NCBI GenBank assembly: GCA_947487765.1
Contig: CANKXO010000007.1
Location: 22,180 to 86,179, forward strand
Direction: 5' to 3'
Source of the DNA: an uncultured Pseudomonadales bacterium
GTDB taxonomy: Bacteria > Pseudomonadota > Gammaproteobacteria > Pseudomonadales > Cellvibrionaceae
DNA: 64,000 nucleotides
Part shown: positions 27,915 through 44,789 of the stretch, one piece after another
Layout of the letters: each line of letters starts with the position of its first letter
How positions within the stretch are numbered: the stretch's first letter is position 1
The notes under the pieces: model-generated
What the model was told of the DNA's origin: nothing
What the model saw: the letters and a program-made list of their open reading frames with translations, nothing else
Database searches by the model: none
Position numbers and translations under genes: made by a program

Positions 27915-27926
27915 ATTAATTTAAAC

Positions 27927-28000: not shown

Positions 28001-28008
28001 AAATTTAA

Positions 28009-28115: not shown

Positions 28116-29312
28116 ATGGCGATTAAAAAAGTATTGGCGCCGCATAAAGATCAGCGGTTGCCTGTAAAAATTTGGACGGATGATATTGATTACAGCACGC
28201 AGGCTCAGTTGAGTCGTGTAGCGAACTTACCATTCGTTTATAAGCATGTAGCAGCGATGCCTGATGTACATCTCGGAAAAGGCGCCACTGTTGGTTCAGT
28301 GATTGCAACCGATAAAGCTATTATCCCTGCAGCTGTGGGTGTGGATATTGGATGTGGAATGAATGCAGTGAGATTATCTATTAAAGCAAAAGATTTGCCT
28401 GATAGCCTAAAATTGATTCGAAACGGAATTGAATCAGTTGTACCTTTAGGTCCCGGAGGTCAACATCGTGACCCCAAAATTGCTGGTGGTCATGATATAT
28501 CAATGCGTCTATGTACTATTTTTGAAAAACACCCGAAGTTAAGTAAGCGCGTTAAAGTGAATGGGTTTGCGAAACAATTAGGAACGCTGGGCTCAGGAAA
28601 TCATTTCATTGAATTATGTTTAGATGAAAATGATGACGTGTGGATTATGTTGCATTCAGGGAGTCGTGGAGTTGGCAATAAAATCGGTATGTACTTTATC
28701 GAAATTGCTAAACGAGAAATGGAAAAATGGATGATTCACTTACCTGATAAAGACTTGGCTTATCTATCTGAAGGGTCAGAATATTATGATGACTATATTG
28801 AAGCAGTTTCTTGGGGGCAAGATTATGCGGCATTGAATCGCACGCATATGATGAATGCAGTAATGCTAGAACTACGTAAGTATTTACCTGCGTTTACAAT
28901 CACACAAGAGGCTATCAATTGCCACCATAATTATGTTGAAAAGGAAAATCATTACGGCAAAAACGTATGGGTAACGCGTAAAGGCGCAATCCGTGCGAGA
29001 AAGGATGATCTTGGTATTATTCCCGGGTCCATGGGTGATAAAAGTTTTATTGTTCGTGGTAAAGGTGAATCTGAATCATTTTGTTCTTGTTCCCATGGTG
29101 CGGGTCGACGATTGAGTCGTACTGCAGCTGCAAAAACTTTTTCCGTTGCTGATCTCGTATCAGCTACTGAAGGAATAGAATGTCGTAAAGACAGGGGTGT
29201 CATTGATGAAATTCCAATGGCATATAAGCCTATCGATAGCGTGATGGATAACCAAACTGATCTAGTGGATATAGTTCATACACTTCGACAAGTCGTCAAT
29301 GTAAAAGGCTAG
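28116..29312 (+). CDS. rtcB: RNA-splicing ligase RtcB (copy 1)
   Basis: The start was moved to the ATG at 28116, which has the RBS AAGGAG 8 nt upstream. The track ORF start at 27885 runs through three tRNA genes. RtcB motifs are present: GVDIGCGMN, GSGNHFIE, HSGSRGVGN, CHHNY, PGSMGDKS, SCSHGAGR. Confidence 0.93.
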   Translation: MAIKKVLAPHKDQRLPVKIWTDDIDYSTQAQLSRVANLPFVYKHVAAMPDVHLGKGATVGSVIATDKAIIPAAVGVDIGCGMNAVRLSIKAKDLPDSLKLIRNGIESVVPLGPGGQHRDPKIAGGHDISMRLCTIFEKHPKLSKRVKVNGFAKQLGTLGSGNHFIELCLDENDDVWIMLHSGSRGVGNKIGMYFIEIAKREMEKWMIHLPDKDLAYLSEGSEYYDDYIEAVSWGQDYAALNRTHMMNAVMLELRKYLPAFTITQEAINCHHNYVEKENHYGKNVWVTRKGAIRARKDDLGIIPGSMGDKSFIVRGKGESESFCSCSHGAGRRLSRTAAAKTFSVADLVSATEGIECRKDRGVIDEIPMAYKPIDSVMDNQTDLVDIVHTLRQVVNVKG

Positions 29313-29358
29313 AAAGGACTTAGCCTTTTCTTTCACCTCTTTCCTCATTTTTAATTTA

Positions 29359-29432
29359 GCCCAATTGGCATAGTGGTCGTGCAGCTGCTTTGTAAGCAGC
29401 AGAGACAGGTTCAATTCCTGTATTGGGCTCCA
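29359..29432 (+). tRNA. tRNA-Thr (anticodon UGU)
   Basis: Acceptor GCCCAAT/ATTGGGC, D stem GCAT/GTGC, anticodon arm GCTGC-TTTGTAA-GCAGC, T arm ACAGG-TTCAATT-CCTGT, then T-CCA. Confidence 0.85.
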
Positions 29433-29441
29433 GTTTACATC

Positions 29442-29593
29442 GCCTGATTAGTTCAATTGGACTTAGAGCATCCGCCTACGACAATTTTGCAGGAGCAAAA
29501 ATTGGGCGTCTATAGAGGCGATCGTGAAACGATAATGTGCAGGACGCATATTACAAACGGGAAGATGCGGGTTCGAATCCTATTCAGGTGCCA
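29442..29593 (+). tRNA. tRNA-Arg(ACG)-like gene with the four-hairpin insert in the anticodon loop
   Basis: The 5' half is canonical: GCCTGAT-TA-GTTC-AATTGGACTTA-GAGC-A-TCCGC-CTACGA. The insert follows from about 29482. The 3' part GCGGG-TTCGAAT-CCTAT-TCAGGTG-CCA has a weak T stem, and no clean 3' anticodon-stem strand was found. Confidence 0.45.
29484..29551 (+). repeat. Four-hairpin insert module, copy 2 (inside the anticodon loop of the 29442 gene)
   Basis: P1 ATTTT-GCAGGAGC-AAAAT; P2 CGTCT-ATAG-AGGCG; P3 ATCG-TGAAA-CGAT; P4 ATGTGC-AGGAC-GCATAT. Collinear with 26819-26888. Confidence 0.75.
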
Positions 29594-29601
29594 AATTTAT
29601 T

Positions 29602-29678
29602 ACTCTCGTAGCTTAATTGGATAGAGCGTCTGTCTTCGAAACAGAACGGTGTTGGTTTGATTCCAACCGAGAGTGCCA
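29602..29678 (+). tRNA. tRNA-Arg (anticodon UCG)
   Basis: Acceptor ACTCTCG/CGAGAGT, D stem GCTT/GAGC, anticodon arm TCTGT-CTTCGAA-ACAGA, T arm GTTGG-TTTGATT-CCAAC (T at position 56), then G-CCA. Confidence 0.82.
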
Positions 29679-29917
29679 ATAATTATTATTAATAAACCCG
29701 AGAATCTTTAGGTGTGGCCGTGGCAGATTGATAAATTTACCGGGAGTAAATTTAGACGCGGGAGAGAAGCGACGGCGCCCGTAGGGGTTGTAACATGGAT
29801 GTTACAAACCAATGTGCGCTTAACTTTGGCTTAAGTGCCCTTGGTTTTTGGAAAGGGGAGTTCAGGTCGCATCGGTCACCCCTAAAGGTTTTTACTAATA
29901 GAAAAGGAGGTCAAGCA

Positions 29918-30211
29918 ATGAGACTTGCTATAACGCGATCAGGTTTTTATAACGCTGATCTTTATTGCGCTGATACTCGTACAGCTAAAAGAGTGTTGCG
30001 TGAAAAAAATATTTCCATATTGGCTATCGACTATTATCTAGTTGGCCAGGGAAATGGTTGCGATATTATTGATTGGGCTAAAAGAAATGCAGTTTTGCCT
30101 AATTTTATCGTTGTTATTGAACGTAATCGCAACAAACGAGCCTTATTATCGAATACATTACGAAATATAGGTTATCGCTCTGGTGATGATACTACCTTTA
30201 TAAGGCATTAA
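29918..30211 (+). CDS. Small receiver-fold-like protein, possibly a degenerate 'cyclic-phosphate processing receiver' (cREC)-type domain
   Basis: The start was moved to the ATG at 29918, which has a strong RBS AAGGAGG. The upstream part of track ORF 29795.. overlaps a structured RNA region. The 97-aa protein contains ...ILAIDYYLVGQGNGCDIIDWAK...PNFIVVIERNRNKRA... This resembles from memory the hhhDhDLG...G.dhh.Wh...hhhHS.N layout of small REC-like proteins that accompany RtcB, but the catalytic-type residues are replaced. Confidence 0.45.
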   Translation: MRLAITRSGFYNADLYCADTRTAKRVLREKNISILAIDYYLVGQGNGCDIIDWAKRNAVLPNFIVVIERNRNKRALLSNTLRNIGYRSGDDTTFIRH

Positions 30212-30250
30212 ATTTAGTTAAAGCGACCACTATGATTAATTGAGAATAGG

Positions 30251-30814
30251 ATGATGAATATTCAAATTTTGCAGCTATCGAAGTCAGGTCACCCAATGTC
30301 TTGGGTGAACCGTGAAGAAGCCGCAACACTGTATGCAAAAAATAGGGTGTTATGGGAGCTGGGTGACGAAGTTATTCCAATTGTCGGCGGTATTAATCGC
30401 TTGGGCATTCAAAGTCGCTTCGATATGGCACCAATTATTGCTTGTGATGGTGATGTGAAACAACCTCGTTTACGACCATCGTTAAGTAATCGTATGCTGT
30501 TTCGCCGAGACGATTACCGATGCTTGTATTGTGGTGTTCAGTTTAATCACGACGGATTAACGCGGGACCATATTGTGCCGCGTATTCAAGGTGGTTTAGA
30601 TCGTTGGGAAAATGTGGTTGCTGCTTGTAAACGCTGTAATCACAGTAAGGGTGGTCGAACGCCAGAGCAGGCAGGGATCAAGCTATTGGCCATTCCATTT
30701 GTGCCGAATCCGTTTGAGTTTCTGTTTTTGGCAAATCGACATATTCTGGCTGACCAGATGGATTATCTTGCGACAAGCTTTTCGTCAAAGCGAGACTGGA
30801 AAAAAGTGGCTTAA
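30251..30814 (+). CDS. HNH endonuclease
   Basis: The HNH core is present: CLYCGVQFNHDGLTRDHIVPRIQGGLDRWENVVAACKRCNHSKGG. 187 aa. Two hairpins follow (30806-30826 and 30837-30862). Confidence 0.85.
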   Translation: MMNIQILQLSKSGHPMSWVNREEAATLYAKNRVLWELGDEVIPIVGGINRLGIQSRFDMAPIIACDGDVKQPRLRPSLSNRMLFRRDDYRCLYCGVQFNHDGLTRDHIVPRIQGGLDRWENVVAACKRCNHSKGGRTPEQAGIKLLAIPFVPNPFEFLFLANRHILADQMDYLATSFSSKRDWKKVA

Positions 30815-30991
30815 CTATTAAGCCACCCACATATTTGGAATACAGGTATTAACCTGTATTCCATACCGATGTTTATACGTATGTTGGCGAAACAGCGGCT
30901 CTGGTTCTGAATGCCAGGCTGGCACAGTCATGTTTTATGTCCTGTGTACCGATTCACTAACACGTTAAACAGTATGCTCTGAAAAAGCATA

Positions 30992-31064
30992 GTTTTTGTA
31001 GCTCATAGGGTAGAGCAATCGACTCATAATCGATGGGTAGCAGGTTCGATTCCTGCCTCAAACA
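30992..31064 (+). tRNA. tRNA with CAU anticodon (fourth CAU gene), weak acceptor stem, no encoded CCA
   Basis: D stem GCTC/GAGC, anticodon arm ATCGA-CTCATAA-TCGAT (perfect), T arm GCAGG-TTCGATT-CCTGC. The acceptor GTTTTTG/CTCAAAC pairs at only 5 of 7 positions. The 3' end is A-CAG. Confidence 0.65.
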
Positions 31065-31424
31065 CAGTCAGTTTTAATAAACTGAAGGAAAAGCCGAGAG
31101 GCTGAGGTTCGAATCCTCATTTGGTCTACTAAACCAAATATAAAACAAGAGGCTCATAGCAACGTAATGCTGTTATAGATTATGTTGCGTTGACATTAAT
31201 ACCGTTAATGATGGGTTAAGGTATTGCGTAGTAAATAATAAGTTTACCTCACTATCAACAGCTAAGGATGGTGTCCTAGGGATGGGGATAATCAAGAGTG
31301 ATTAGGTTAGTGTGGAGCAACCGCTGTATTTGTCTACCCATTACATTTAAGTTATTTACCGTACTCATGGCAAATGGGCCTCGCCATTATAGTCATTGGA
31401 AGAAATAAATAAGGGAGAATAATA

Positions 31425-32576
31425 ATGATTCTTTGGAAAACAATCGATATTGCGGAACATGAACGTGTATTACTTTATGTCCGTGATCAATTTAAACAAG
31501 TGCTAGGCCCAGGTCGGCATCGTGTCTCGACCTTGAAGGGAAAAGTTCGCCAGGAAACCTATGATATTACCGAAGTAGTATTCAGGCATCCTAAAGAAAA
31601 ATTTTTGCTGTCACACTACCCAGAAAAACTGGCAATGCACCTTGAGCAGTTTGACTTAAAAGATACTGAAGTGGGCTTGTTATATCGAAATGGCCATTTA
31701 ATGAATGTGTTGGCACCTGGTAGTTTATTTACAGTTTGGAAAGGTGTTGAGGATATTCGTGTTGACGTTATCGATATTAATAACCACTATCAGATAGAAG
31801 AGTCTTTAATTGGCTTATTGGGGCGAGGCATTAAAATTGGTCAAAGCCGAGAAGTCGTTAATGCGATTGCTTATGCAGAGGTAGTTGATGAGCATGTAGG
31901 TTTATTGCTGGTTAACGGTAAGCTAGAAAAGATCTTGCAACCGGGTAGTTACGGCTTCTGGAAATATAACCGTTCAATTGCGGTTAAAATGCTTGATCTT
32001 CGTTTACAAGCAATGGAGGTTAGTGGCCAAGAGATTCTGACCAAAGATCGCGTGAGTTTGCGTATTAACTTAACTGGTAGTTATAAAATTAAAGATCCTC
32101 AAATTGTTGCCTCTAAGGTGAATGATTACGCAGGTTTTATCTATCGTGAGTTGCAATTAAGTTTGCGAGAAATTGTAGGCACACAATCATTAGATGGATT
32201 GTTAGAAGATAAAGATGCTTTAAATTCTGTAATTACTCAGAGTACACGAGAAAAATTAGCGGAATACGGTATTCAGTTAATGAGTGTCGGGGTTAAAGAT
32301 ATTATTTTACCTGGTGAAATGAAGCAGATTCTGAATCGAGTAGTAGAGGCGCAAAAAGAGGCTGAAGCTAATTTGATTAAGCGTCGTGAGGAAACTCAGG
32401 CAATGCGTTCATTACATAATGCTGCCAAGATGATGGAAAACAACCCTGTGTTGTTACGTTTAAAGGAATTAGAAGCATTAGAAAGAGTGACTGGGAAAAT
32501 CGATAAGATTTCTGTCTATGGTGGCCTTGATAGTGTTCTTAATGACTTGGTAAAACTGGCGCCGGTCAAAACCTAA
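31425..32576 (+). CDS. SPFH/Band-7 (slipin-like) domain protein
   Basis: 383 aa. The C-terminal half is SPFH-like (...VSLRINLTGSYKIKDPQIVA...GIQLMSVGVKDIILPGEMKQILNRVVEAQKEAEANLIKRREE...). No clear N-terminal TM helix was seen. Confidence 0.8.
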   Translation: MILWKTIDIAEHERVLLYVRDQFKQVLGPGRHRVSTLKGKVRQETYDITEVVFRHPKEKFLLSHYPEKLAMHLEQFDLKDTEVGLLYRNGHLMNVLAPGSLFTVWKGVEDIRVDVIDINNHYQIEESLIGLLGRGIKIGQSREVVNAIAYAEVVDEHVGLLLVNGKLEKILQPGSYGFWKYNRSIAVKMLDLRLQAMEVSGQEILTKDRVSLRINLTGSYKIKDPQIVASKVNDYAGFIYRELQLSLREIVGTQSLDGLLEDKDALNSVITQSTREKLAEYGIQLMSVGVKDIILPGEMKQILNRVVEAQKEAEANLIKRREETQAMRSLHNAAKMMENNPVLLRLKELEALERVTGKIDKISVYGGLDSVLNDLVKLAPVKT

Positions 32577-32609
32577 AGAAAGCTGCTAGGTTATTTAGCA
32601 GCTTTCTTT
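32575..32609. terminator. Bidirectional terminator hairpin between the convergent SPFH and RT genes
   Basis: The 14-bp stem AAAGAAAGCTGCTA (32575-32588)/TAGCAGCTTTCTTT (32596-32609) is perfect, with loop GGTTATT. Confidence 0.7.
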
Positions 32610-32749
32610 GATGAGAAGTTTACCTTTTAAATGACTGTTTCATGCAATGATGAAACAATAGCAATATCGAACATCATTTGTTATTAATGAGTTAATTTTT
32701 TTATAATTGAATGCTAGGGTTGAAGTTCATAAGATGTTTTTATTGAGCG

Positions 32750-34531
32750 CTAGCGAAAAGATACAATCAAAAATATAAGTACAGCAATTGCCGCAAAAAT
32801 CATTACGCGAGCGAAGGGTTGCATAGAATCTGTATTAGATGCATCCGATAGCCATGGTGATTGAGATTCTTTCTGTTGTTGTGACTTAGTTTCTTCCTTT
32901 TTTGTTTGTTTTTTTGCGGTCGCTATTTGTTTAAGCTCTTCTGTAGTATTCTCTTTAACAGGTGGTGCTGGTGGCTCAGCTTGCCACCAGTTTTCGCGTG
33001 GTGCTTCACCGGCAGCGGCCTTTAAGCGTAAAAGTTTATTATTTAATTTGCCAATGCGACTTGGATTAACTTGATAACTGTATTTTTGTTTTAGTTGTAC
33101 TATTTGCTTTTGTAAAGGAATGCCCTTGCTAGGGTTAACCATTGCGACAAAGTTGGCGTAACCTTCTATGGAGCACAATAAATTGCTACTGCTATTGTGA
33201 GAACGATGAGCCCAGTGCTTACCCTCTAGCCCGCTTTTGTCAATTTGATGTAGTAAGGCTCTGAAGCGCTTTAAGGTCTTGCGATCAACGCTAAGGTTAT
33301 TATTCACTACCACGCCGGTCACTTCTTGTTTTTTATGCTTGCGCATAATGCGTGTTTTTTCGGGGTGAACAATAAAACCTTCATCCTTAATAATACTATG
33401 ACAACGCCACAATAGTTTTTTTACAATGCTGTCGTCAATATTCTGTGGATTAATATCATCGCCCTTGTTGGAGCTTGCCGAAAAAGTAACATCGTCAGCA
33501 TATCGCGTATAAGTAAAGCCTAATTTTTTAGCCATCCCTTGTAAGCGAGCATCCAATTTTCTACAGATGATATTGCTAATATTAGGGCTAGTTGGCGCTC
33601 CTTGCGGTAAAAAGCGCTCTCCGTTACTAACAAACCAAGACTGACTATCTAGTTCAACCTCCTGTGTATTCGCTTCGGTGCAAAGTAAGGCTAGTACTGT
33701 TGCAATGTGTTCACTGTAACCTAGAGCTTTAAACATCCCCTTAACTCTTGGATAGCTAATTGTTGGAAAGAAGTTTTTAAGGTCGAGGTTAATAACAATA
33801 TCTTTGCCTACATGAGGCGCAGCATTGGTTACGATAGAGCGCGTGCGTACAAAGCCATGAGCGGCATCATGTAATGCCAGCGGCTCTAAAATATTGGATA
33901 AAACCCAATACTGGGCAAGTTTCAACCGTGGCATAGGGGCAGATATTAGGCGAGTTCCACCGGTTTTCTTGGTCATTTGGAAGCGTTGATAATGACTAAT
34001 CGTGCAGACATCTTTTTGGTAGACTAAAAAACGTAGCTCATTAACGGTAATGCCCATGGCTCTGGCCAACATTTGGCTGTCGTGCAGTAGTGGTAACTGT
34101 TGGGCTTGGAGTTTGTCTTCATCGCTGTTAACTTTTGATAGCCCTATCGATAAACCTTCCCCTACGAAGGTAATAAATTTCTTTTGGATGTCGTACCAAT
34201 TCTTTGCTCGTTGGTATCGTGTTTCATTGCGTTCTTTACGCTTTTCTTCTCTACGAATAAGTGCTTCTTTTTTACGCTGTTTGTGTAACTCCTTTAGTGC
34301 TTGCTCTGGGTCTTGATACAATTGCTGTTGCTTTCCTAATTCACGCAGTTGCTTTTGTAACTGCCCGCGCTTTTCAATAAAGGTTTCTGTTAGTGTTGGC
34401 TGTTCACTATTTTTTGGCCAAAACCCAAGACGTTTCATCTCTGCTAAAATATAAACTTCTTTACCACCTGTTTCGCGTACGCGCTGGTAGAGTTCTTGGC
34501 GGCTTAATTTTTTAGTGCTTTCGTCAGACAT
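32750..34531 (-). CDS. Reverse transcriptase, retron/Abi-DRT-like, with N-terminal extension and C-terminal TM anchor
   Basis: RT motifs are present: NAAPH (NAxxH), INLDLKNFFPTI, LPQGAPTSP, YTRYADDVTFS, and QEVTGVVVNN (VTG). There is a ~190-aa charged N-terminal extension, a K/E/Q-rich tail, and a terminal hydrophobic helix MIFAAIAVLIFLIVSF. The RBS GGGAGA lies upstream. Confidence 0.9.
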   Translation of the reverse strand: MSDESTKKLSRQELYQRVRETGGKEVYILAEMKRLGFWPKNSEQPTLTETFIEKRGQLQKQLRELGKQQQLYQDPEQALKELHKQRKKEALIRREEKRKERNETRYQRAKNWYDIQKKFITFVGEGLSIGLSKVNSDEDKLQAQQLPLLHDSQMLARAMGITVNELRFLVYQKDVCTISHYQRFQMTKKTGGTRLISAPMPRLKLAQYWVLSNILEPLALHDAAHGFVRTRSIVTNAAPHVGKDIVINLDLKNFFPTISYPRVKGMFKALGYSEHIATVLALLCTEANTQEVELDSQSWFVSNGERFLPQGAPTSPNISNIICRKLDARLQGMAKKLGFTYTRYADDVTFSASSNKGDDINPQNIDDSIVKKLLWRCHSIIKDEGFIVHPEKTRIMRKHKKQEVTGVVVNNNLSVDRKTLKRFRALLHQIDKSGLEGKHWAHRSHNSSSNLLCSIEGYANFVAMVNPSKGIPLQKQIVQLKQKYSYQVNPSRIGKLNNKLLRLKAAAGEAPRENWWQAEPPAPPVKENTTEELKQIATAKKQTKKEETKSQQQKESQSPWLSDASNTDSMQPFARVMIFAAIAVLIFLIVSFR

Positions 34532-34689
34532 CTGCCTGTCTCCCTAATATAAATAAGGATAAATGTTGAGTGTTAAAAAAATGGATAATGATAGTTGTTA
34601 CAAGAACAAATAAAGAAGAGAAGTGCGCAAGATAAAAGGGTGCCAGCGTGCTCAATGTTTCCTTCGTAGAGCTCTTAGTACTGGATTGA

Positions 34690-34785
34690 TCAACTCGACG
34701 CGGCACGCCCCTACTATCGCTCATTGACTTCATGGAAGTCATACCGCAATAGCGATAGTAGGGGCTGTGCCGCCCTATGAAGATC
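34690..34785 (-). ncRNA. Highly structured non-coding element immediately upstream of the RT (candidate RT template or msr-msd-like RNA)
   Basis: A 22-bp interrupted inverted repeat joins GCGGCACGCCCCTACTATCGCT (34700-34721) to AGCGATAGTAGGGGCTGTGCCGC (34751-34773). It encloses a second hairpin TGACTTC-ATG-GAAGTCA (34725-34741). It lies in the 400-nt gap between the SWIM gene and the RT. Strand and ends are not determined. Confidence 0.45.
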
Positions 34786-34931
34786 AGGCCAGTGACGCGT
34801 GTGTAGTCTATAAACCAGAACGGCGATGCACCGCTCAAATTGCAAGGTAGATAAGTCACGCTGACACCTGTGCTAGTATAGCAGTGTTGTTAGGTTTTAA
34901 AAGAGCGCTATTAAAATTCTTCATGATCTCT

Positions 34932-36572: not shown

Positions 36573-36643
36573 ATTTTTGCCTGAGAAATTTTTCTGAAAA
36601 TTATGAATCTAATGCGTTTTTGTATAATTTTTATATAGCGTTT

Positions 36644-39600
36644 TTAAACACCCAGCGATGCAGGTTGTTTAATGGGTACCTTTTTGGCTGTTAAGGGTGA
36701 TGCTATATCTGGATACAATGATTGTAATTTAAGCATAGCTTTTATCAAAGCGGCTTTATCTTTATGTACCATAGTTAACGAAATTCGTTCCAATAAAGGC
36801 ATTACCATAGTGGCAACACTTATATCTTTTTCTGCTTCTCTTAATAAAAACAGTAGAATCCTATCTTTACAAACGCGACCCTTATTAATTTGTGATAACG
36901 CTGTTGTAAAATAAGCTTGTAATGAAAGTATATGGCTAGGAATACCCGCCGCGTATTCTTCTAAAAAACTGCTGACAAAAAGCTGTACATTATTTGACGG
37001 ATGCTGGCTTAACTTAAGCAAGTATTCTGGGCCATACTCAGCTTTAAAAAAAGATTGTAGTATTTCGCGTCCAAAGCTTTGTACGTCATCTCTGATGCTG
37101 TCGCAAATAAAAATAACAATTTCAGGGCTCCAATCTTCTTGGCTGTATTGTTGTCGAAAAAAATCAAAGCCAAAGGTTCTTGCATCGTCCCAGTTGCTAT
37201 TTAGAATTCGAAGAGCATCACGACTGTATTGTTTAATTTCATCTACATTTTTCTCGTAAGCCTGAAATGCAAACTGCCTGACAGATACATCGCTATGCTG
37301 GCCTAATATTGCCCATTGTTTGACTGAAAATATATCTGCATTACGTTCAGTTAAGGTTATGGCGCCCACTCGTTGAGCACAGATAGATTGTGCCTGTAAT
37401 AAGCGCCATAGCATATCATTGTCTAGTTTCGTTAAATGTGATTGTGCCAATGAAGTAAAAAAGGCAATTAATTCTTCATGTTGCCCAGGCTGCTCTTCAG
37501 ACTTAAATGTCAGCGCTAATAATGTATTTTCAATCTGCTCGGATCCCTGTTGAGAGTTGGTCATTAGGCGGGAAAAAATAGAAAGTAGGGAGGCGCGCTC
37601 TTGAGTATCGCCCTTGCAATACAAGCCGACTAATAAGTCTAATTGTTTGATTAAGTCTTTATCGGCTTGTTTGCCTAGTAATGCAGCACCTATCCCTCTA
37701 ACTTCGGCTGAGGATGAATCATGAATTGCCTGTAATAAGCTGTCGGGAATATCTCCATAAGATATTTTGTGTCCAAGCAATAATTTTGCACCTAATATTT
37801 TTCTGGGTACTTTCTCGTCATGAATTAAACGTTGCAAACTAGTAAGAGGGAAGTGTTTAATTGCATCATTTAGGTTCTCAAGTGCAAAATCGGCCAAATA
37901 CTCTGCATGCTTTTCGCTTAAGTTGCTGTTCTCTAAAAAGATAGAATCAACTATAGCTTGCAATAGTTTCTCAGCATTTCTACCAGAAATCTTTTGCTGG
38001 CAAACAGCCGTTTTAATGTCACTTTGTACATCACTATGAAGAATCAATAGTAGTGATGTTAATAGTGAAATATCATCATTAATTTTGAACCTTAGTAAAG
38101 ATTGCTTACCTAATACTCTAGCCTCAGTCAGCGAGCTACTTAGTAGAGCGATTAATAATTCACTACTTAAATCGTCTTGTTTAATGCGTTCGCGAACAAT
38201 TGCTAGTGCAAATTCACAAGTACTCGCATAGTTGCTGTTCAGTAAAAGAGCTAAATCTACAGGGCTGATTTTCTGGCAAAAACTCGGTTGATTTTCTAAT
38301 ATCCGACGAGCGAAAGGATGAACCAGCTCGCATCGACTTGTTTTTAATAAGCGTAGTGCATGGCTAGGCTTTTGATCCCAAAGTTCAGCAAAGCATTCGG
38401 TACGAGATCCATTTATCAAGGAAGTACCGTCGGTATTCGACTCATCACTTTTTATCCAGACGCGGCCACTAGGTGCAAGTTGATACCCTGGATGATGTTC
38501 GAAGAGGATATGATTTAAGCTTAAGAAGCTGGCAAAAGGGCCATATTCATTGCTGGATATCAACTGGCGTTGCCAATTGTCGCCACTATTATCCCAGCGA
38601 TAAACCTCTGATGTTCGAGGCTTGCTACCATGCTCATCATTAATCGCAAGCAATGATTCTGTTGCCATATCAACATAACGGAGATCACCGGCCTGTCCTA
38701 TACGCCTGAGTACTCGCCAGCTACGACGGCGAAAGTAATCTCGTGTACGATGCGAGAAGGTCAATTTTGCATTGGCCTTTTTCAGTTCTTTAGATGGTTT
38801 AATACTGCCTTCACCGGGAAGCCATGCCCAATCCCAATCATTACGAAAAAATGCGGGTGCTGTTTCTATACGCTGCGCTAATAAGCCAAATACAGACCCG
38901 TCAAGACGTAGCTCGGATGCTTTATAAATTGATCTAATGCCCCGAAAATATCCTGGGGTTAGGGGAATAATAGCCAGTTGACTTAATAATGCTTGATGCA
39001 ATATGGGGTAAGCTAGCGATAGCTGATAACAAAGTACCAATAGCTGATTAGTATTGTTAACGTTGTCACTAGCCCCATGACTGAGCAACGCGCCAAGTTG
39101 CTGATGAGCAGTGCTACTATTTCCTTCCATAACAGCAGATTTAAACTGTGCAGGAAAGTGCTGCCAATGGCTGCCTAACAAGGCTTTGCGCGATGTTTGG
39201 TCGCTGATTAATAGTTGCGATTCAAAGGCTATATGACAAACTTGTGCTTGTTTGTGTTGCCTCAAGGTTTCTAAAACCGCCTTGTGTTGCGTGGCAACCA
39301 TCCGCCCCAAGGCCCAAGCAATAGAGTAATCCTCTAACCAATGGCCTTTCTTAATATAGGGCACAATTGCATTGGCAATAGGTTCACAATCTCGGTGCCC
39401 TAATTCCCCGAGTCGCCATATCATGCGGCTGCGAGATTTAGTCTCTTTTTCATTGGGTAAATGATTGAGTATCTGTTCAATTAGTTTAAAAGGAAAGTCA
39501 TCGGAGGCAAGATTGCTAGAAGGGACGCCTGCAAGTGTAGGCGAGGTAGTAGTAGGGGACTGTTTTGCTTGTTCTCTATCCCAATAGCCTTTATTGACTT

Positions 39601-39820
39601 TGGATACAACAACACTATCAAATAGCTTCTCTGCTTTGCTAAGCTCAACAGCTTCAGGGGTTTTAGTGCCTTCTCTTAATTGATTGCCGCGACGCCCGTA
39701 TCGAAAATTAACGAGATAACGTTCATCTTTTCGGCTTGCTAACTCACATAAATCAACTTCATAAACTTTGTCGGAATTGCCTTCCTGATACACCAATCGA
39801 GATTGCTTGATTAGTCGCAT
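36644..39820 (-). CDS. WGR-domain protein with long helical (HEAT/ARM-like) repeat region
   Basis: 1058 aa. An N-terminal WGR domain is present (LVYQEGNSDKVYEVDL...YLVNFRYGRRGNQLREGTK...AEKLFDSVVVSKVNKGYW). The remainder is leucine-rich and alpha-helical in character. Confidence 0.8.
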   Translation of the reverse strand: MRLIKQSRLVYQEGNSDKVYEVDLCELASRKDERYLVNFRYGRRGNQLREGTKTPEAVELSKAEKLFDSVVVSKVNKGYWDREQAKQSPTTTSPTLAGVPSSNLASDDFPFKLIEQILNHLPNEKETKSRSRMIWRLGELGHRDCEPIANAIVPYIKKGHWLEDYSIAWALGRMVATQHKAVLETLRQHKQAQVCHIAFESQLLISDQTSRKALLGSHWQHFPAQFKSAVMEGNSSTAHQQLGALLSHGASDNVNNTNQLLVLCYQLSLAYPILHQALLSQLAIIPLTPGYFRGIRSIYKASELRLDGSVFGLLAQRIETAPAFFRNDWDWAWLPGEGSIKPSKELKKANAKLTFSHRTRDYFRRRSWRVLRRIGQAGDLRYVDMATESLLAINDEHGSKPRTSEVYRWDNSGDNWQRQLISSNEYGPFASFLSLNHILFEHHPGYQLAPSGRVWIKSDESNTDGTSLINGSRTECFAELWDQKPSHALRLLKTSRCELVHPFARRILENQPSFCQKISPVDLALLLNSNYASTCEFALAIVRERIKQDDLSSELLIALLSSSLTEARVLGKQSLLRFKINDDISLLTSLLLILHSDVQSDIKTAVCQQKISGRNAEKLLQAIVDSIFLENSNLSEKHAEYLADFALENLNDAIKHFPLTSLQRLIHDEKVPRKILGAKLLLGHKISYGDIPDSLLQAIHDSSSAEVRGIGAALLGKQADKDLIKQLDLLVGLYCKGDTQERASLLSIFSRLMTNSQQGSEQIENTLLALTFKSEEQPGQHEELIAFFTSLAQSHLTKLDNDMLWRLLQAQSICAQRVGAITLTERNADIFSVKQWAILGQHSDVSVRQFAFQAYEKNVDEIKQYSRDALRILNSNWDDARTFGFDFFRQQYSQEDWSPEIVIFICDSIRDDVQSFGREILQSFFKAEYGPEYLLKLSQHPSNNVQLFVSSFLEEYAAGIPSHILSLQAYFTTALSQINKGRVCKDRILLFLLREAEKDISVATMVMPLLERISLTMVHKDKAALIKAMLKLQSLYPDIASPLTAKKVPIKQPASLGV

Positions 39821-40200
39821 AGCTTCCTTAAACTCTTTTATTTTTTGATAAACTTATTTTTTTGAGTATAGCATTATCCTAATAATGGACAAGACTACAT
39901 GGCTATATTATATCTAGAGTTTACACTCGCTCTATCGTAAAGACTATGCTTCTATATACTTCATTCACGTTTTATTAGATAGCAATTATAACCTTTACCC
40001 CTTTCCCTGACGTGATTGTAAAGTGTTAATTTCATATTTGGGTTTACGGCGGTGCTATAATTTTGGTTGCTGTGTCAGGAAGTGTCGCGTTATTTTCAAT
40101 TCTAAAGGTTATCTTGATGAATGTGTTACCTAGCCCGATGACAAATATGTAATTACTATATTTTAAACAATTTTTAAATGCTTAACTGGTAGTAAAGTAT

Positions 40201-41460
40201 ATGCAATTAAATAATAAAAAAGTTTACTTAGTTGGCGGAGCTGTCCGTGACGAACTATTGAATCGCCCAGTTTCAGATCGAGACTGGGTGGTGATTGGTG
40301 TGACTCCAGAAATGTTGATTAAGCAAGGCTATCGGCAAATCGGTAGTGACTTTCCTTGCTTTTTGCATCCTGAAACCAAAGATGAATATGCACTGGCACG
40401 TACGGAGAAAAAATCAGGAAGCGGCCATACAGGGTTTGTGTGTGATTTTAGTCCTGAGGTAACTCTCGAAGAAGATTTATCTCGGCGCGACCTCACCATC
40501 AATGCCATTGCTAAAACAGTAGAGGGTGAATATGTTGATCCTTATGGAGGCAGAGAAGATTTAGAGAATCGAATATTGCGCCATGTATCAGATGCATTTG
40601 CTGAAGACCCATTGCGTGTGTTACGCGTTGCTCGTTTTGCCGCTCGCTACGCAGAGTTAGGTTTTACGGTACACCCAAGTACATTAGCCTTAATGGCTCA
40701 GTTAGTCAGTTCTGGTGAACTATCAGAATTAACACCAGAGCGAGTCTGGAAAGAAATGTCTCGTGCATTAACAGAGCCTCGTCCTAGTGAGTTCTTTCGT
40801 GTGCTTCGTGCCTGTGGTGCTTTGTCGGTACTATTACCCGAAGTAGATTGCTTATTCGGTGTTCCTCAGCCACCCCAACATCATCCTGAAATTGATACCG
40901 GCGATCATGTAATGATGGTGGTTGATATCGCTAAAGAGCGCTTTGATTCTATTAATATCACTTGGGCTGCCTTAATGCATGATTTAGGAAAAGGGCTGAC
41001 GCCTGAAGAGGAGTGGCCCAAGCATATCCGTCATGAAATTAAAGGTGTGCCATTAGTTGAGGCTGTTTGCGAGCGTTATAAAGTTCCGCGTGATTTTAAA
41101 ACATTAGCAATGTTAGTTTCTGAGCACCATTTGCGTTGCCATAAATTATTAGAGATGAGACCAAAATCCATTATGCGCTTATTAGAAGCGCTGGATGCTT
41201 TTAGGCGGCCAGAGAGGGTTAAATATTTTGCGCAAGCCTGCGAAGCCGACGCCAGAGGTCGCTTAGGTTTAGAAGATAGAGATTACCCACAATCGTCACT
41301 ATTAATAAAATGCGGTGAAGTGGGGAAGGATATAGATATTAAGCCTTTACTGGATGAAGGCTACCAAGGCTTGAAGCTGGCGGAACAGATTCGCCGTTTA
41401 CGACTAGGGGCGATTAAGAGGTTTATGGCAAATTATCGAAAAGAAATATTAGGGAAATAA
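40201..41460 (+). CDS. cca: Multifunctional CCA-adding tRNA nucleotidyltransferase with HD domain
   Basis: Starts VYLVGGAVRDELLNRPVSDRDWVV. The class-II NTase head is followed by an HD region (HHPEIDTGDHVMMV...HDLGK). 419 aa, like gammaproteobacterial Cca. Confidence 0.92.
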   Translation: MQLNNKKVYLVGGAVRDELLNRPVSDRDWVVIGVTPEMLIKQGYRQIGSDFPCFLHPETKDEYALARTEKKSGSGHTGFVCDFSPEVTLEEDLSRRDLTINAIAKTVEGEYVDPYGGREDLENRILRHVSDAFAEDPLRVLRVARFAARYAELGFTVHPSTLALMAQLVSSGELSELTPERVWKEMSRALTEPRPSEFFRVLRACGALSVLLPEVDCLFGVPQPPQHHPEIDTGDHVMMVVDIAKERFDSINITWAALMHDLGKGLTPEEEWPKHIRHEIKGVPLVEAVCERYKVPRDFKTLAMLVSEHHLRCHKLLEMRPKSIMRLLEALDAFRRPERVKYFAQACEADARGRLGLEDRDYPQSSLLIKCGEVGKDIDIKPLLDEGYQGLKLAEQIRRLRLGAIKRFMANYRKEILGK

Positions 41461-41464
41461 TAAG

Positions 41465-42367
41465 ATGAGCAGTAAAACTCAGCATTTAATTAAACAAGGT
41501 TTACTCAAGTCTCCGCCTAAGTTTTTGGAAACCGGGGTACAGTATGAAGTGGTTATGGGCTCTATTGCCTATGGTGTTGCTGAAGATCACTCTGATATGG
41601 ATATTTATGGTTTTGCCATTCCACCACGAGACTGGGTATTTCCTCACTTAAGAGGAGAAATTTCAGGTTTTGATGAATCTGGCCCTCAATTTGAGCAAGT
41701 GCAGCAACATCATATGTTGGATAAGTCTGCACGTGGAGGTAAAGGCAAGGAGTATGATTTGGTCATCTATTCGATTATTAAATACTTTCGCTTACTGATG
41801 GATAATAACCCTAATATTATTGATTCTTTATTTGTGCCGCGCAATTGTGTGCTTTATAGCACTGCTGTTGGTGAGATGGTCCGCGAAAACCGTCATCTAT
41901 TCTTGCATAAAGGTTGTTGGGCAAAGTTCAAAGGTTATGCTTATTCACAAGTACATAAAATGCGAACAAAGGTTCCAGAAGGTGGCCGTCAAGCGATCAT
42001 TGATGAATATGGTTATGATGTAAAATTTGCCTATCATGTTGTTCGGTTACTGAATGAAGTCGAGCAAATATTAATTGAAAAAGACCTTGATTTGGCACGA
42101 AATAAAGAGCAATTAAAATCGATACGCCGTGGCGAATGGACACAGCAAGCCATTGAAGAATATTTTACTAATAAAGAAAAACAACTTGAGCAAACTTATC
42201 TGGACAGTGCCTTGCCTGCGTTACCGGATAAAGCAGCTATTAAAAAGTTATTGTTGGAATGCTTGGAGCATCATTACGGCTCATTATCTGAATGTATTGT
42301 TCAGGAAGATGAGGCTTTGATCGCTATTCGAGAAATTGAAACGATAGTGCAACGCTTGAAAAAGTAA
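41465..42367 (+). CDS. Pol-beta-superfamily nucleotidyltransferase (RNA-repair-associated 'RlaP'-like family, from memory)
   Basis: The NTase signature GSIAYGVAEDHSDMDIYGF (GS...DxD) is present. 300 aa. It starts 4 nt after the cca stop. Confidence 0.65.
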   Translation: MSSKTQHLIKQGLLKSPPKFLETGVQYEVVMGSIAYGVAEDHSDMDIYGFAIPPRDWVFPHLRGEISGFDESGPQFEQVQQHHMLDKSARGGKGKEYDLVIYSIIKYFRLLMDNNPNIIDSLFVPRNCVLYSTAVGEMVRENRHLFLHKGCWAKFKGYAYSQVHKMRTKVPEGGRQAIIDEYGYDVKFAYHVVRLLNEVEQILIEKDLDLARNKEQLKSIRRGEWTQQAIEEYFTNKEKQLEQTYLDSALPALPDKAAIKKLLLECLEHHYGSLSECIVQEDEALIAIREIETIVQRLKK

Positions 42368-42864
42368 GCCTTTATTTTTTAATTGAACCACTTTGTATTT
42401 GTTAACCTATAAAAATACTCATTAATATAGTTGTAGTTAATTTTTGTAAGGAAATGTTATAAAAATTATGAATAAAGATATTGATATATAATTTTAATAT
42501 GACTATAGTGCGCGCAGTTTTTACAAATCACCTTTAATCAATACTCTACAGGAGGCTCAAGTATGTTGTATCTAAATAATCAAATCGCATTGTTGGGTTT
42601 GTCTGTATCTTGTTCTTATAGCTAACATTTTTGTTAACGCTATAGCTATCTTTCAGATAAATCCTCTTAGCTAAACGTCTTAACTGTACGTTATAGGTAG
42701 TTTTGCGTAATTTTTTAAGCTAATTCTTGTTGGTCAAATTCTATCGACCATACATTTGCATTTTTTTATGCGGTTAGCGATTAATCTGTATCGCCTTTTG
42801 TTTCAACTCGAAAATATTTTTTGAGGGGGCAATGTCGTGCCTAAAAACATGAGTAGAAATTTTA

Positions 42865-44091
42865 ATGGACACTTATATTAAAAAAATTAATACGCTGGTT
42901 GATCGGCAGGCGAGAGTTGTTATCTTTGATGATAATTGGCTTGAAGATTCTGCTGTTGAGCAGTTGAAAAGAACAATGGAATTAGACGGCATGTTGAGAG
43001 GTATCGGTATGCTTGACCTGCACCCAGGTAAGGGGCAACCAATTGGTGCAGCGTTTGTAACGTGTAATGCCATCTATCCTCACCTTGTCGGGAGTGATAT
43101 CGGTTGTGGTATGGGATTATGGGATTTAGATATTCCAGTCCGAAAAGTTAAATTGGATAAATGGGAGAAGCAATTAGTTGGCCTTGATGAATTTTGGGAT
43201 GGATATCCAAATGATCGGTTACAGAAAAAAGATATTGATACAACTGATACTTTTTTATTATCTGAAAACGGTAAGTTAGGAACCATCGGTGGTGGTAATC
43301 ATTTTGCAGAGCTACAGAAAATTGACAGTATTATTGATTCTGTTGCGTTTAAGCAGTCAGGTCTCAATCATCAGTCTGTTAAATTACTAGTGCATAGTGG
43401 TTCGAGAGGTCTGGGCCAAAAAATTCTCAGGCGCTATGTTGATGATTTTGGCTCAAGCGCTATTTCGACAAATGAACAACCTGAACTTGGTCAACATTAT
43501 ATTCAGCAACATAACTACGCTATCAGATGGGCTGAAGTGAATCGTGATGTCATTGCAGACCGGTTCTGTGAACAGCTCAAAGCGCAGCGGAGATTGGTAT
43601 TGGATGTTGCTCACAACAGGGTTGACCCATTGGCTGAGGAATACGCTGAAGCGATGGGGTTATTAACAAAGAGGCTGCCAGGAAATGGCAACAAAAAATA
43701 CTGGATACACCGTAAAGGCGCAAGCCCAACTAATGAAGGGTTGGTCATGATACCGGGGTCTCGTGGTAGCTTGAGCTACCTTGTTAAGCCTCGTTTGTCG
43801 AATATTCATAGTCTTTCTCAAGGTGGTTTTTCATTGGCCCATGGTGCAGGACGTAAATGGAAGCGAAGTGATGTTCGAGGACGATTAGAAAGCCGCTATA
43901 AAGTAAAAGATTTGGAAAAAACAGCCTTGGGTAGTCGAGTTATTTGTAAGCAACGCGACTTACTGTATGAGGAAGCACCTCAGGCTTACAAAAATATAAG
44001 TCATGTAATAAGTGATTTGGTTGGCGCTGGTCTTGTCGATATTGTTGCAACATTTAAACCGTTACTGACTTATAAGACACGGAGGGTATAA
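42865..44091 (+). CDS. rtcB: RNA ligase RtcB, PrfH-associated paralog (copy 2)
   Basis: RtcB motifs are present: GSDIGCGMG, GGGNHFAEL, HSGSRGLG, AHNRV, PGSRGSLSY, LAHGAGRKW. prfH begins 2 nt after its stop. Confidence 0.9.
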   Translation: MDTYIKKINTLVDRQARVVIFDDNWLEDSAVEQLKRTMELDGMLRGIGMLDLHPGKGQPIGAAFVTCNAIYPHLVGSDIGCGMGLWDLDIPVRKVKLDKWEKQLVGLDEFWDGYPNDRLQKKDIDTTDTFLLSENGKLGTIGGGNHFAELQKIDSIIDSVAFKQSGLNHQSVKLLVHSGSRGLGQKILRRYVDDFGSSAISTNEQPELGQHYIQQHNYAIRWAEVNRDVIADRFCEQLKAQRRLVLDVAHNRVDPLAEEYAEAMGLLTKRLPGNGNKKYWIHRKGASPTNEGLVMIPGSRGSLSYLVKPRLSNIHSLSQGGFSLAHGAGRKWKRSDVRGRLESRYKVKDLEKTALGSRVICKQRDLLYEEAPQAYKNISHVISDLVGAGLVDIVATFKPLLTYKTRRV

Positions 44092-44093
44092 AT

Positions 44094-44789
44094 ATGAAAA
44101 TAGTGAAAGGAGAAAATGAAAAAAATATTGCATGGTTGCAAGTAACCTCTGGTCAAGGGCCGAAAGAATGCGCTTGGGTTGTCGCACGATTAGAGCCGAT
44201 CATTTTGCAAGAGGCTAAAAAGGCTGATCTGTCTGCTGAGCGCATTGAAGCTTTGGCTTTTGATAAATTGCTACGGAAGCAAAATCTTATCGAGACTGAT
44301 GCTTATTTATCGATATTAATCCGCTTGCAAGGGAGGGGAGTCGACGAGTTTGTTCAATCTTGGCAGGGAACGATTAAATGGCAAGGCGAAAGCCCCTATC
44401 GTCCCAAGCATAAGCGATTTAACTGGTTTGTCGGTGTTGCAACACTTGCTATACCAGAGAAGCAAAACGTTGAGTTAAGTAGTTTATCTAAAGATATTGA
44501 TTTTGAATCAATGCGAACAAAGGGGCCAGGTGGGCAACATGTAAATAAAACGAATAGCGCGATTCGTGCGACGCATCGACCAACAGGTTTGCAAGTACGG
44601 GTTGAAACGGACCGTTCTCAGCATAGGAACAAGCAAATAGCATTGGAGCGTTTGCAAATGTTGCTAGCTCAAAGAGGTAGTAATGAGAAAAAATCAATAG
44701 AGCATGCACGCTGGCTGCAACACTATGATGTGAAAAGGGGCAGTCCTACACGCATATTTTATGGGAAAGGATTTACCGAAAACCATTGA
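44094..44789 (+). CDS. prfH: Peptide chain release factor H
   Basis: The GGQ motif region RTKGPGGQHVNKTNSAIRATHRPTG and the N-terminal LQVTSGQGPKECAWVV are typical of PrfH. It is tightly coupled to rtcB. Confidence 0.88.
   Translation: MKIVKGENEKNIAWLQVTSGQGPKECAWVVARLEPIILQEAKKADLSAERIEALAFDKLLRKQNLIETDAYLSILIRLQGRGVDEFVQSWQGTIKWQGESPYRPKHKRFNWFVGVATLAIPEKQNVELSSLSKDIDFESMRTKGPGGQHVNKTNSAIRATHRPTGLQVRVETDRSQHRNKQIALERLQMLLAQRGSNEKKSIEHARWLQHYDVKRGSPTRIFYGKGFTENH

Follow-up and report, generated by a model that had tools for sequence, protein, structure and literature searches.

A chromosomal RNA-repair island of ~21 kb, located at 25.3–46.2 kb of a 64,000-nucleotide (nt) stretch of contig CANKXO010000007.1 from a marine gammaproteobacterium of the Cellvibrionaceae (hereafter the window, i.e., the whole stretch of DNA analysed), carries both bacterial types of the RNA ligase RtcB. 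We read this island as an assembly of known modules in which one ligase, RtcB-1, would serve general and tRNA repair and the other, RtcB-2, would repair cut ribosomes together with PrfH. We assign this reading a probability of roughly 75%; it takes substrates and activities from the E. coli orthologues and from RlaP of Pseudomonas, and builds on the family membership, orthology, intact catalytic motifs, gene order and recurrence in relatives that we observe for the genes concerned. E. coli is already known to have both types of ligase with distinct tasks, and the locus is therefore a tidy further example and an unusually complete one of known RNA-repair systems, not a novel system. A first-pass annotation made from the letters of the window had outlined much of the layout, and the table of open reading frames (ORFs), the tRNA scan and the raw sequence agree with it; its list lacked an SPFH/Band-7 gene, an HNH gene, a conserved non-coding RNA (ncRNA) and two conserved genes without annotated function (orf97 and orf318). 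The nearest relatives are metagenome-assembled genomes (MAGs) of the Cellvibrionaceae and Candidatus Endobugula sertula. Among the loci compared, L001 derives from a Cellvibrionaceae MAG, L003 from Aurantivibrio infirmus and L010 from Ca. Endobugula sertula, and L002 and L007 lie on one contig. The two ligases, PrfH and the leader that precedes RtcB-2 are located as follows.

28116 to 29312, plus strand: RtcB-1, RNA 3'-phosphate ligase of the E. coli RtcB1-like clade, SPFH/Band-7-associated; PF01139, 428 bits
42368 to 42864, plus strand: leader of rtcB-2/prfH, AT-rich, 497 nt, 29% GC against 41% in the whole window
42865 to 44091, plus strand: RtcB-2, PrfH-coupled RtcB; NF007153, 487 bits (cut-off 407), and TIGR03073, 423 bits (cut-off 272)
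44094 to 44789, plus strand: PrfH, release-factor homologue that would rescue damaged ribosomes; TIGR03072, 208 bits (cut-off 167), with GGQ motif (GPGGQHVNKT)

The two ligases had been described as clearly different in sequence, and they share 25% identity. RtcB of E. coli K-12 shares 54.5% identity with RtcB-1, against 29% for E. coli RtcB2; for RtcB-2 the figures are 43.5% with E. coli RtcB2 (strain E189) and 27.6% with RtcB1. Both match the Pfam RtcB family far above its cut-off of 27 bits (RtcB-1, 428 bits, E = 7.5e-128; RtcB-2, 224 bits, E = 4.6e-66), and RtcB-1 fails the two PrfH-coupled models NF007153 and TIGR03073 with 173 and 142 bits. The retention of metal and His-GMP motifs in both copies holds up in an alignment with the two E. 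coli paralogs, in which DIGCGM, GNHF, HSGSRG, the (H)HN histidine and HGAGR line up in all four proteins. In a neighbour-joining tree of 44 sequences the two RtcB clades are split in 100 of 100 bootstraps, with a mean inter-clade identity of 30%, and each copy from the window falls into its own deeply separated clade, contrary to the idea of recent duplicates within one clade. As judged from alignments and tree, RtcB-1 is the orthologue of RtcB1 and RtcB-2 that of RtcB2 in E. coli, and the pair did not arise by recent duplication.

The proposal that the two copies divide the labour draws on these orthologies. Every strain of E. coli encodes both RtcB1 and RtcB2, at 28% identity to each other (Tian et al. 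2022 PNAS, PMC9304027); the two do not share RNA substrates, and neither RtcB1 nor other rescue factors can stand in for RtcB2/PrfH (PMC9304027). RtcB2-PrfH confers protection from colicin E3 but not from colicins E5 and D, which are tRNases (Maviza et al. 2022, PMC9223846). Because the E. coli orthologues have mutually exclusive substrates, the division of labour suggested by the first-pass annotation is a sound inference from orthology, and in this form it is already published. Its more specific part, RtcB-1 acting on tRNA, derives from the position of the gene in a tRNA array, which is the sole feature to suggest tRNA-specific action. A restriction to tRNA is too narrow, because E. coli RtcB1 is reported also to religate MazF-cut 16S rRNA (PMC9223846).

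The coupling of RtcB-2 to prfH is evident in the sequence: the TAA of rtcB-2 is followed by 'AT' and then by the ATG of prfH at 44094, leaving the 2-nt gap that had been reported, and a GGAGG for prfH lies within the end of rtcB-2. Across related loci, prfH follows rtcB-2 in 56 of 65; nearly all of those outside this lineage come without other island genes, and one alteromonad contig has the order RtcB2-PrfH-Cca. The PrfH of the window comprises 231 amino acids (aa) and aligns end to end with E. coli PrfH at 36% identity. Compared with the E. coli RtcB2-PrfH pair, both families score above curated cut-offs, and gene order, GGQ and ligase motifs and tight coupling are shared, although the coupling takes the form of a 4-nt overlap in E. 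coli E189. The pair of the window differs in having a conserved 390-nt leader with a 20-codon ORF and in being nested in a larger island, whereas the E. coli pair stands alone between yafP and pepD. Membership in the dual-function PrfH-CT subfamily, which is characterized by an extra basic C-terminal helical tail and a total length of 225–250 aa (Tian et al. 2026, PMC12829566), was considered and rejected: the extra residues are N-terminal and internal, and the C-terminus ends where that of E. coli PrfH ends. In distant lineages (Melainabacteria and uncultured bacteria; L027, L068, L069 and L032), RtcB2 is located within 10 kb of runs of 5–9 tRNAs or directly after two tRNAs; prfH was detected in L027 and L032 only among these four.

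The AT-rich gap of 497 nt before RtcB-2, correctly noted at first pass, contains conserved sequence of its own. About 390 nt directly upstream of rtcB-2 are kept at 74–86% identity in L001, L005 and L007, in the latter two although other genes separate rlaP from rtcB-2. Within this leader, positions 42563–42625 hold a 20-codon upstream ORF (MLYLNNQIALLGLSVSCSYS) with a strong Shine-Dalgarno sequence (SD), whose frame and stop are preserved in four genomes. A promoter-like site is located at 42481–42509 and a terminator-like hairpin with a U-tract at 42777–42794. Consensus scans for promoters, including array promoters, and for terminators gave results not above chance. The leader may function as a leader-peptide attenuator that senses impaired ribosomes or translation, a hypothesis drawn from four close sequences. 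We also considered that the gap is a decayed second rlaP, as compared with L005 and L007, and rejected this: it has no protein-level similarity to rlaP, and the sequence it aligns with in those loci is the conserved stretch immediately before rtcB-2.

RtcB-1 is embedded in a tRNA array, as the first-pass annotation had stated, and is followed by several conserved genes, the last of which lies beyond prfH.

26499 to 28082, plus strand: array, upstream part, 11 intact tRNAs (Trp, Asn, Tyr, Met x3, Ser, Gln, Cys, Gly, Lys)
26499 to 26653, 26750 to 26909, 27361 to 27486 and 27770 to 27914, plus strand: interrupted or degenerate array units, namely Glu*, Phe*, chimeric Leu(taa) and Pro-like
29359 to 29882, plus strand: array, downstream part, Thr (29359 to 29432), Arg(ACG)* (29442 to 29593), Arg(TCG) (29602 to 29678) and a heavily disrupted His remnant (29711 to 29882)
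29918 to 30211, plus strand: orf97, small conserved protein after RtcB-1 in arrays, with its own SD and ATG
30251 to 30814, plus strand: HNH endonuclease; Pfam HNH_5 and HNH, NCBIfam; its HNH domain resembles those of IscB/Cas9
30892 to 31146, plus strand: conserved ncRNA, ~255 nt, upstream of the SPFH gene
31425 to 32576, plus strand: SPFH/Band-7 protein; Pfam Band_7, 1e-30; presumed scaffold of the RtcB-1 repair module
44918 to 45874, plus strand: orf318, conserved, uncharacterised, predicted GNAT-like fold, linked to RtcB-1-type ligases

Array units were called from ARAGORN, Rfam tRNA matches, a deletion scan that restores tRNA calls, and collinearity with L001. ARAGORN places 11 tRNAs upstream of RtcB-1 (26664–28082) and 3 downstream (29359–31065), and the array totals 14 intact and about 6 broken tRNA units (asterisks and remnants in the list), with an HNH gene nearby; it occupies different sites in relatives. 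The ligase gene starts with an ATG 33 nt past tRNA-Lys, with AAGGAG 8 nt before it; processing of the flanking tRNAs probably frees its message from the array transcript. A longer, TTG-started version of the ORF (from 27885) would overlap tRNA-Gly and tRNA-Lys. The unit at 27361–27486 is a fusion of Leu(taa) with Leu(caa) through a deletion running from one T-arm to the other, whereas L001 keeps the two genes apart; the acceptor halves of the fusion are mismatched, and tRNA-Leu(tag) is lost in the window. Downstream of RtcB-1, Arg(ACG) and His are intact in L010, and His also in L001. Long tRNA arrays are linked to HNH genes and rtcB, spread horizontally and are induced by translational stress in Anabaena, and the HNH gene is a hallmark of the cyanobacterial L-arrays (PMC8421152). 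The array of the window resembles these (PMC8421152) in being non-periodic, in combining many different tRNAs, in its patchy distribution, in the HNH gene and rtcB nearby and in its pseudogenes; it differs in being gammaproteobacterial and shorter, in having RtcB inside, and in interruptions by structured elements, which are not described there. The arrays of L003 (9162–9302) and L002 (8667–8771) contain an ArfA-like short gene that is not found in the window; such genes fit the theme of RNA and translation rescue. In the 1.2-kb non-coding stretch before the array, two near-identical hairpins ending TTTTTTTATGCCC lie 607 nt apart (25520–25560 and 26127–26166) and may be terminators or a further repeat family.

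Following the neighbourhoods of RtcB-1 relatives outward identifies RtcB-1 as the SPFH/Band-7-associated type of RtcB. Relatives at 85–95% identity (L001, L002, L003, L010) are always located inside a tRNA array and followed by orf97 and the HNH gene. Those at 66–69% identity occur as RtcR-Band_7-RlaP-RtcB in one operon of Endozoicomonas numazuensis and as RtcR-Band_7-RtcB in Aliiglaciecola lipolytica, and Burkholderia gladioli has Band_7-RtcB within a region that also holds phage-like genes and an integrase. Among 80 metagenome loci with ligases of 58–64% identity, an orf318 homologue adjoins the ligase in 14, SPFH is present in 6 and HNH in 5, and tRNA arrays of 20–24 are found in three and one of 7 in a fourth. 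In 80 viral contigs with an RtcB-1-type ligase, the ligase is mostly alone. At least three tRNAs within 4 kb of such a ligase are found in 3/80 metagenome and 2/80 viral loci. Band_7 genes adjoin RtcB-1-type genes in L003, L005, L007, L010, L078–L080, L083, L089, L120 and L356–L358, and the linkage of RtcB, Band_7 and a tRNA-like ncRNA that defines the SPFH/Band-7-type system is present in the window and recurs in at least 12 loci. Burroughs and Aravind reportedly predicted such a system in 2016, together with 'a novel tRNA-like molecule'. The Band_7 operons of Endozoicomonas and Aliiglaciecola share with the window the RtcB-1-type ligase, Band_7, a tRNA-like ncRNA and RlaP, whereas here the ligase has moved into the array, there is no RtcR, Cca, HNH, orf97 and orf318 are added, and a retron splits SPFH from cca-rlaP. 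Relative to rtcBA/RtcR of E. coli, RtcB-1 belongs to the same clade with the same motifs, but is flanked by tRNAs, and RtcA and RtcR were not found. The absence of RtcA, RtcR, archease and Ro/TROVE stated at first pass agrees with a Pfam scan of the window's larger ORFs (which passed over three ORFs at 61.3–64 kb and most ORFs below 100 aa) and, for RtcA and RtcR, with tblastn of the E. coli proteins over the window.

Three parts make up the ncRNA that precedes the SPFH gene: a block of hairpins at the 5' end, a cloverleaf resembling tRNA at 30992–31065 (anticodon CAT, no CCA), and a second module with a variable arm and a T-arm. An alignment of eight loci, the SPFH proteins of which are 46–92% identical, shows compensatory changes in 16 of 39 pairs, and Endozoicomonas and Aliiglaciecola likewise have a tRNA-like T-arm module, placed after rtcR and before the gene for Band_7. 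By this comparative evidence the conserved ncRNA is real. Rfam assigns the ncRNA to no family other than tRNA; a YrlA match of only 24 bits (cut-off 69) falls within the array at 27434–27545, outside the ncRNA. The rsr-yrlBA-rtcBA operon of Salmonella combines Ro (Rsr), Y RNA and RtcB. Ro/Y-RNA-RtcB operons and the island share the logic of a ligase, a scaffold and a tRNA-like ncRNA; here the scaffold is of the SPFH/Band-7 type and the ncRNA matches no Y-RNA model. The SPFH/Band-7 protein and the tRNA-like ncRNA occupy the slot that is held by Ro and Y RNA in other Rtc systems.

The remaining companions of RtcB-1 are conserved to different extents. The HNH gene is kept beside RtcB-1 arrays in L001–L003, L010, L078–L080, L120 and L355. 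Homologues of orf97 are found at the same position in L001 (99% identity), L002 (35%) and L010 (37%); the protein matches no Pfam, NCBIfam, PADLOC or PHROG family, and a single-sequence AlphaFold2 (AF2) model, with a mean confidence score (pLDDT) of 39, gave no usable fold. The orf318 family comprises ~780 homologues, all without a name or Pfam domain, and a confident AF2 model predicts a GNAT-like core. In the window orf318 lies beyond prfH, though elsewhere it is a companion of 1-type ligases, and because of this position the RtcB-2/PrfH pair appears nested in the RtcB-1 module.

Between the SPFH gene and the leader of rtcB-2, two further RNA-end enzymes are encoded.

40201 to 41460, plus strand: Cca, multifunctional; NF008137, 621 bits (cut-off 451); Pfam PolyA_pol, PolyA_pol_RNAbd and HD
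41465 to 42367, plus strand: RlaP, RNA-ligase-associated pol-beta nucleotidyltransferase (NTase); PF10127, 69.6 bits (cut-off 23)

The first-pass annotation placed cca and a pol-beta NTase 4 nt apart, which is correct, and the NTase is more exactly RlaP (PF10127). Cca has head, neck and HD, the last being a phosphoesterase domain, and RlaP contains the NTase motif GS...DxD as GSIAYGVAEDHSDMD (GS...DMD). The HD domain of E. coli Cca is able to open or remove 2',3'-cyclic phosphates. In Pseudomonas, RlaP is located between rtcB and rtcA and puts one or two nucleotides onto damaged or trimmed RNA 3' ends (PMC12776372). By their position upstream, the two genes had been attached to RtcB-2. This attachment is called into question by L001, where SPFH, cca and rlaP are contiguous with spacers of 58 nt and then ~3 nt, by the Band_7-RlaP-RtcB operon of Endozoicomonas, and by the separate leader of rtcB-2. 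From these three observations and the place of RlaP in Pseudomonas, it is more likely, on comparison of these loci, that cca and rlaP partner the SPFH/RtcB-1 module or serve both modules.

The order of the island recurs in at least five related genomes. L001 has the order array-RtcB1-tRNAs-orf97-HNH-ncRNA-SPFH-(58 nt)-Cca-RlaP-(497 nt)-RtcB2-PrfH-orf318, and the gene order of the window is found in L001/L006 and in L010, where rlaP is a 60-residue remnant. L005 and L007 share a second arrangement, [RtcB1-type + RtcA]-ncRNA-SPFH-HD-NTase-Cca-RlaP-RlaP2-...-RtcB2-PrfH-orf318, with the array missing at this site. The 1-type ligase of L005 is a different one (58% identical) accompanied by RtcA, and the L007 locus begins downstream of that position. 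Extra components in L005 (233–9619) and L007 (501–7698) are RtcA, a stand-alone HD protein, an additional pol-beta NTase and a second RlaP; L005 further has a 213-aa gene without annotation, and L007 has DUF3087 and GGDEF genes between rlaP and rtcB-2. The right flanking gene of L007 is common with the window, and its array and RtcB-1 lie 330 kb off on the same contig (L002). In five species-level genomes a 1-type RtcB and RtcB2/PrfH bracket SPFH-Cca, and RlaP is present in four of them.

Where L001 has a spacer of 58 nt between SPFH and cca, the window holds an insertion of 7.6 kb that contains a retron.

32750 to 39820, minus strand: type XIII retron, with reverse transcriptase (RT; 32750 to 34531), orf111 (34524 to 34859), SWIM (34932 to 36572) and WGR/HEAT (36644 to 39820)

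PADLOC detects RT_XIII (E = 9e-188), SWIM_XIII (E = 1e-232) and WGR_XIII (E = 0), i.e., the protein set of type XIII; msr/msd had no Rfam match at gathering level, with no further search made. The retron is unrelated to the rest of the island, into whose middle it was inserted later. The island itself is bordered by a LysR gene (ending at 25265) and an aminotransferase gene (46252–47946, minus strand), and the rest of the window is ordinary chromosome, including rpsK-rpsD-rpoA-rplQ, uvrA, ssb, efflux pumps and catabolic genes. A megablast search of phage genomes with the island as query gave no match, and there was no integrase or transposase among the Pfam-scanned larger ORFs of the window.

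Several tRNA genes of the array are interrupted by short structured inserts, which we assign to three families of mini-elements.

26556 to 26637, plus strand: mini-element A, 82 nt, hairpin-rich, in the T-loop of tRNA-Glu
26815 to 26890, plus strand: mini-element B, ~75 nt, four hairpins, in the T-loop of the Phe-like unit directly after TTCGA; identified with nhmmer
29482 to 29556, plus strand: mini-element B in Arg(ACG)*, anticodon loop
27383 to 27432, plus strand: mini-element C, 50 nt, in the D-loop of the chimeric tRNA-Leu(taa)
about 27806 to 27872 and 29729 to 29870: further inserts, in the anticodon loop of the Pro-like unit and in the His remnant

The inserts of families A, B and C are 50–130 nt long and are located in T, anticodon or D loops. 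When they are deleted in a scan, tRNA calls reappear for Glu (T-loop), Leu-taa (D-loop), and Pro-like and Arg-ACG (anticodon loop) in the window, and elsewhere for Phe and Arg-ACG in L001, Tyr and Pro-like in L002, Leu-tag in L003, and Met and Cys in L010; by eye, Phe and His in the window and Gly and Lys in L010 are also interrupted. Insertions vary between genomes with ~90% identical arrays, and those in Glu and Leu as well as one upstream copy are new in the window. The family A insert, for instance, is not in the intact orthologous tRNA-Glu of L001, and a homologous copy with compensatory stem changes resides in the T-loop of tRNA-Cys of L010; the tRNA-Phe that holds family B in the window is intact in L010; and both C copies, the second of which lies upstream of the array (26198–26246), are not in L001. 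Family B comprises ten copies in four genomes, with conserved AGGA loops and compensatory changes in 17 of 26 pairs, and owes its strand-specific fold to many G-U pairs. In every copy the preceding bases form a T-N-S-R-A pentamer, for example TTCGA of the T-loop. One B copy is reversed (L010 Gly), and one C copy lies within a repeat further upstream. Between the window and L001, orthologous inserts are 91–95% identical, compared with 75–90% for the host tRNA halves, 88% for the RtcB-1 coding sequence, 75% for the spacer and mostly 95–100% for intact tRNAs.

The mini-element motif occurs nowhere else in the window, nor in loci without arrays. Rfam, both at gathering level and at E<=1, returned nothing but tRNAs in the array and no ribozyme or intron family on the inserts, and IMG/VR, scanned with a 14-mer for family B, yielded matches at chance level only. 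A single match to a 22-nt family A pattern was spurious, being within a protein-coding stretch with no tRNA nearby. Self-cleaving ribozymes and group I introns were rejected as explanations, as the inserts are too short, occur in both orientations and match no such family. Our preferred reading is that of small non-autonomous insertion elements acting at the DNA level, in the palindrome style of IS200/IS605, which would target a T-loop-like pentamer and would be tolerated only in dispensable array tRNAs. Alternatively, they may be functional small RNAs riding on tRNA scaffolds.

Taken together, the island would consist of two modules. The first would comprise a horizontally mobile long array (~20 tRNA units), RtcB-1, orf97, HNH, the ncRNA, SPFH, orf318 and probably cca-rlaP. 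In this module, RtcB-1 would join 3'-phosphate or 2',3'-cyclic-phosphate ends to 5'-OH ends, most likely of tRNAs and other small RNAs cut by anticodon nucleases or toxins, while the array would supply spare tRNAs under translational stress, as in Anabaena; Cca would rebuild CCA ends and could remove 2',3'-cyclic phosphates, and RlaP would add 1–2 nt to trimmed 3' ends. The second module would be rtcB-2/prfH with its own leader: where colicin-E3-type toxins had cleaved 16S rRNA at the decoding centre, PrfH would enter the A site of the ribosome and release the peptide, after which RtcB-2 would religate the 16S rRNA. Several observations weigh against so cooperative an island. The modules need not act together: in the L007 genome the array and its RtcB-1 are distant, and most RtcB2-PrfH loci (L008–L067) are bare pairs. 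The SPFH-cca slot is variable, and the opposite-strand retron breaks read-through from SPFH to cca here; cca may be the sole genomic copy, a housekeeping gene that happens to be located at this site. RtcR, the usual regulator of this RtcB type, is missing from the window along with RtcA, the many interrupted or decaying tRNAs of the array weaken the idea of a finely tuned set of spares, and the reported religation of MazF-cut 16S rRNA by E. coli RtcB1 makes a purely tRNA-directed RtcB-1 too narrow a view.

It is possible, if doubtful, that the modules are co-located without cooperating, the site being an integration hot spot of independently acquired cassettes in which the adjacency of the ligases has no functional meaning beyond each module. 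The retron in mid-island, the different contents of the SPFH-cca and rlaP-rtcB2 slots among relatives (HD, NTase, RlaP2, DUF3087, GGDEF), the presence of array and RtcB-1 at other chromosomal sites in L002 and L003, the known horizontal spread of long arrays with an HNH gene (PMC8421152) and the separate leader of rtcB-2 are all in keeping with a hot spot. However, a 1-type RtcB and RtcB2/PrfH flank SPFH-Cca in five of five species-level genomes, even where the 1-type ligase is a different one (L005), orf318 past prfH nests the RtcB-2 pair in the first module, everything but the retron encodes RNA-end chemistry, and the scanned ORFs include no integrase or transposase. Improbable in our view is a different assignment of the main client of RtcB-1, either to the SPFH-bound tRNA-like ncRNA or to rRNA or mRNA ends on the scaffold, with the array position reflecting co-transfer or co-transcription. 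Genes of the RtcB-1 type keep company with Band_7 and tRNA-like RNA much more broadly than with arrays (3/80 and 2/80), the ncRNA is conserved with covariation, and the reported activity of E. coli RtcB1 on MazF-cut 16S rRNA points in the same direction; yet the closest relatives (>=85% identity: L001, L002, L003, L010) always have the gene inside an array, and the substrates best documented for RtcB1 are tRNAs with a cut anticodon loop.

The interrupted tRNAs raise the question of whether RtcB-1 is a processing ligase that joins tRNA halves after the inserts have been excised from transcripts, which would amount to protein-dependent tRNA splicing in a bacterium. We consider this very unlikely. 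At least 5 of the ~20 tRNA units in the window carry inserts, with more in L001, L002, L003 and L010, and family B sits exactly between A58 and T59, such that its precise removal restores the canonical T-loop TTCGATT. The inserts are structured with strand-specific covariation, mostly in sense orientation, and are better conserved than their host tRNAs, and RtcB is well known to join tRNA halves in archaea and animals. Yet neither a splicing endonuclease nor an RNase generating 2',3'-cyclic phosphates, either of which such a pathway would call for, was found among the scanned ORFs of the island, and HNH nucleases yield 5'-phosphate and 3'-OH ends. Of the archaeal/eukaryal splicing scheme, in which an endonuclease acts at bulge-helix-bulge junctions and RtcB joins the products, the scanned ORFs offer RtcB alone. 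The reversed family B copy and the family C copy outside any tRNA are equally at odds with excision from transcripts, as is the family A insert, which replaces three bases of the T-loop. The exons of interrupted tRNAs diverge faster and resemble pseudogenes, with broken stems, the Leu/Leu fusion and lost nucleotides, and the array is absent from most RtcB-1 relatives. If splicing did occur, the excised hairpin RNAs might carry a function of their own.

As orthologues with separate roles in E. coli, the paired ligases bear out in a distant marine lineage the model in which one RtcB would deal with general and tRNA breaks and the other, with PrfH, with cut ribosomes. The value of the locus lies in the assembly of nearly every known accessory of RNA repair within 21 kb, namely an array, SPFH with a tRNA-like RNA, Cca and RlaP, to which relatives add RtcA, HD and NTases. 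The same stretch holds three conserved puzzles, orf318 with its predicted GNAT-like fold, orf97, and the rtcB-2 leader with its upstream ORF, and the mini-elements that target tRNA genes may represent a family of small elements, mobile or functional, that has not been described before. The locus is thus suited to asking how rtcB-2/prfH is switched on, what role an SPFH ribonucleoprotein plays, and how the 3'-OH products of RlaP would be fed to a 3'-phosphate ligase.

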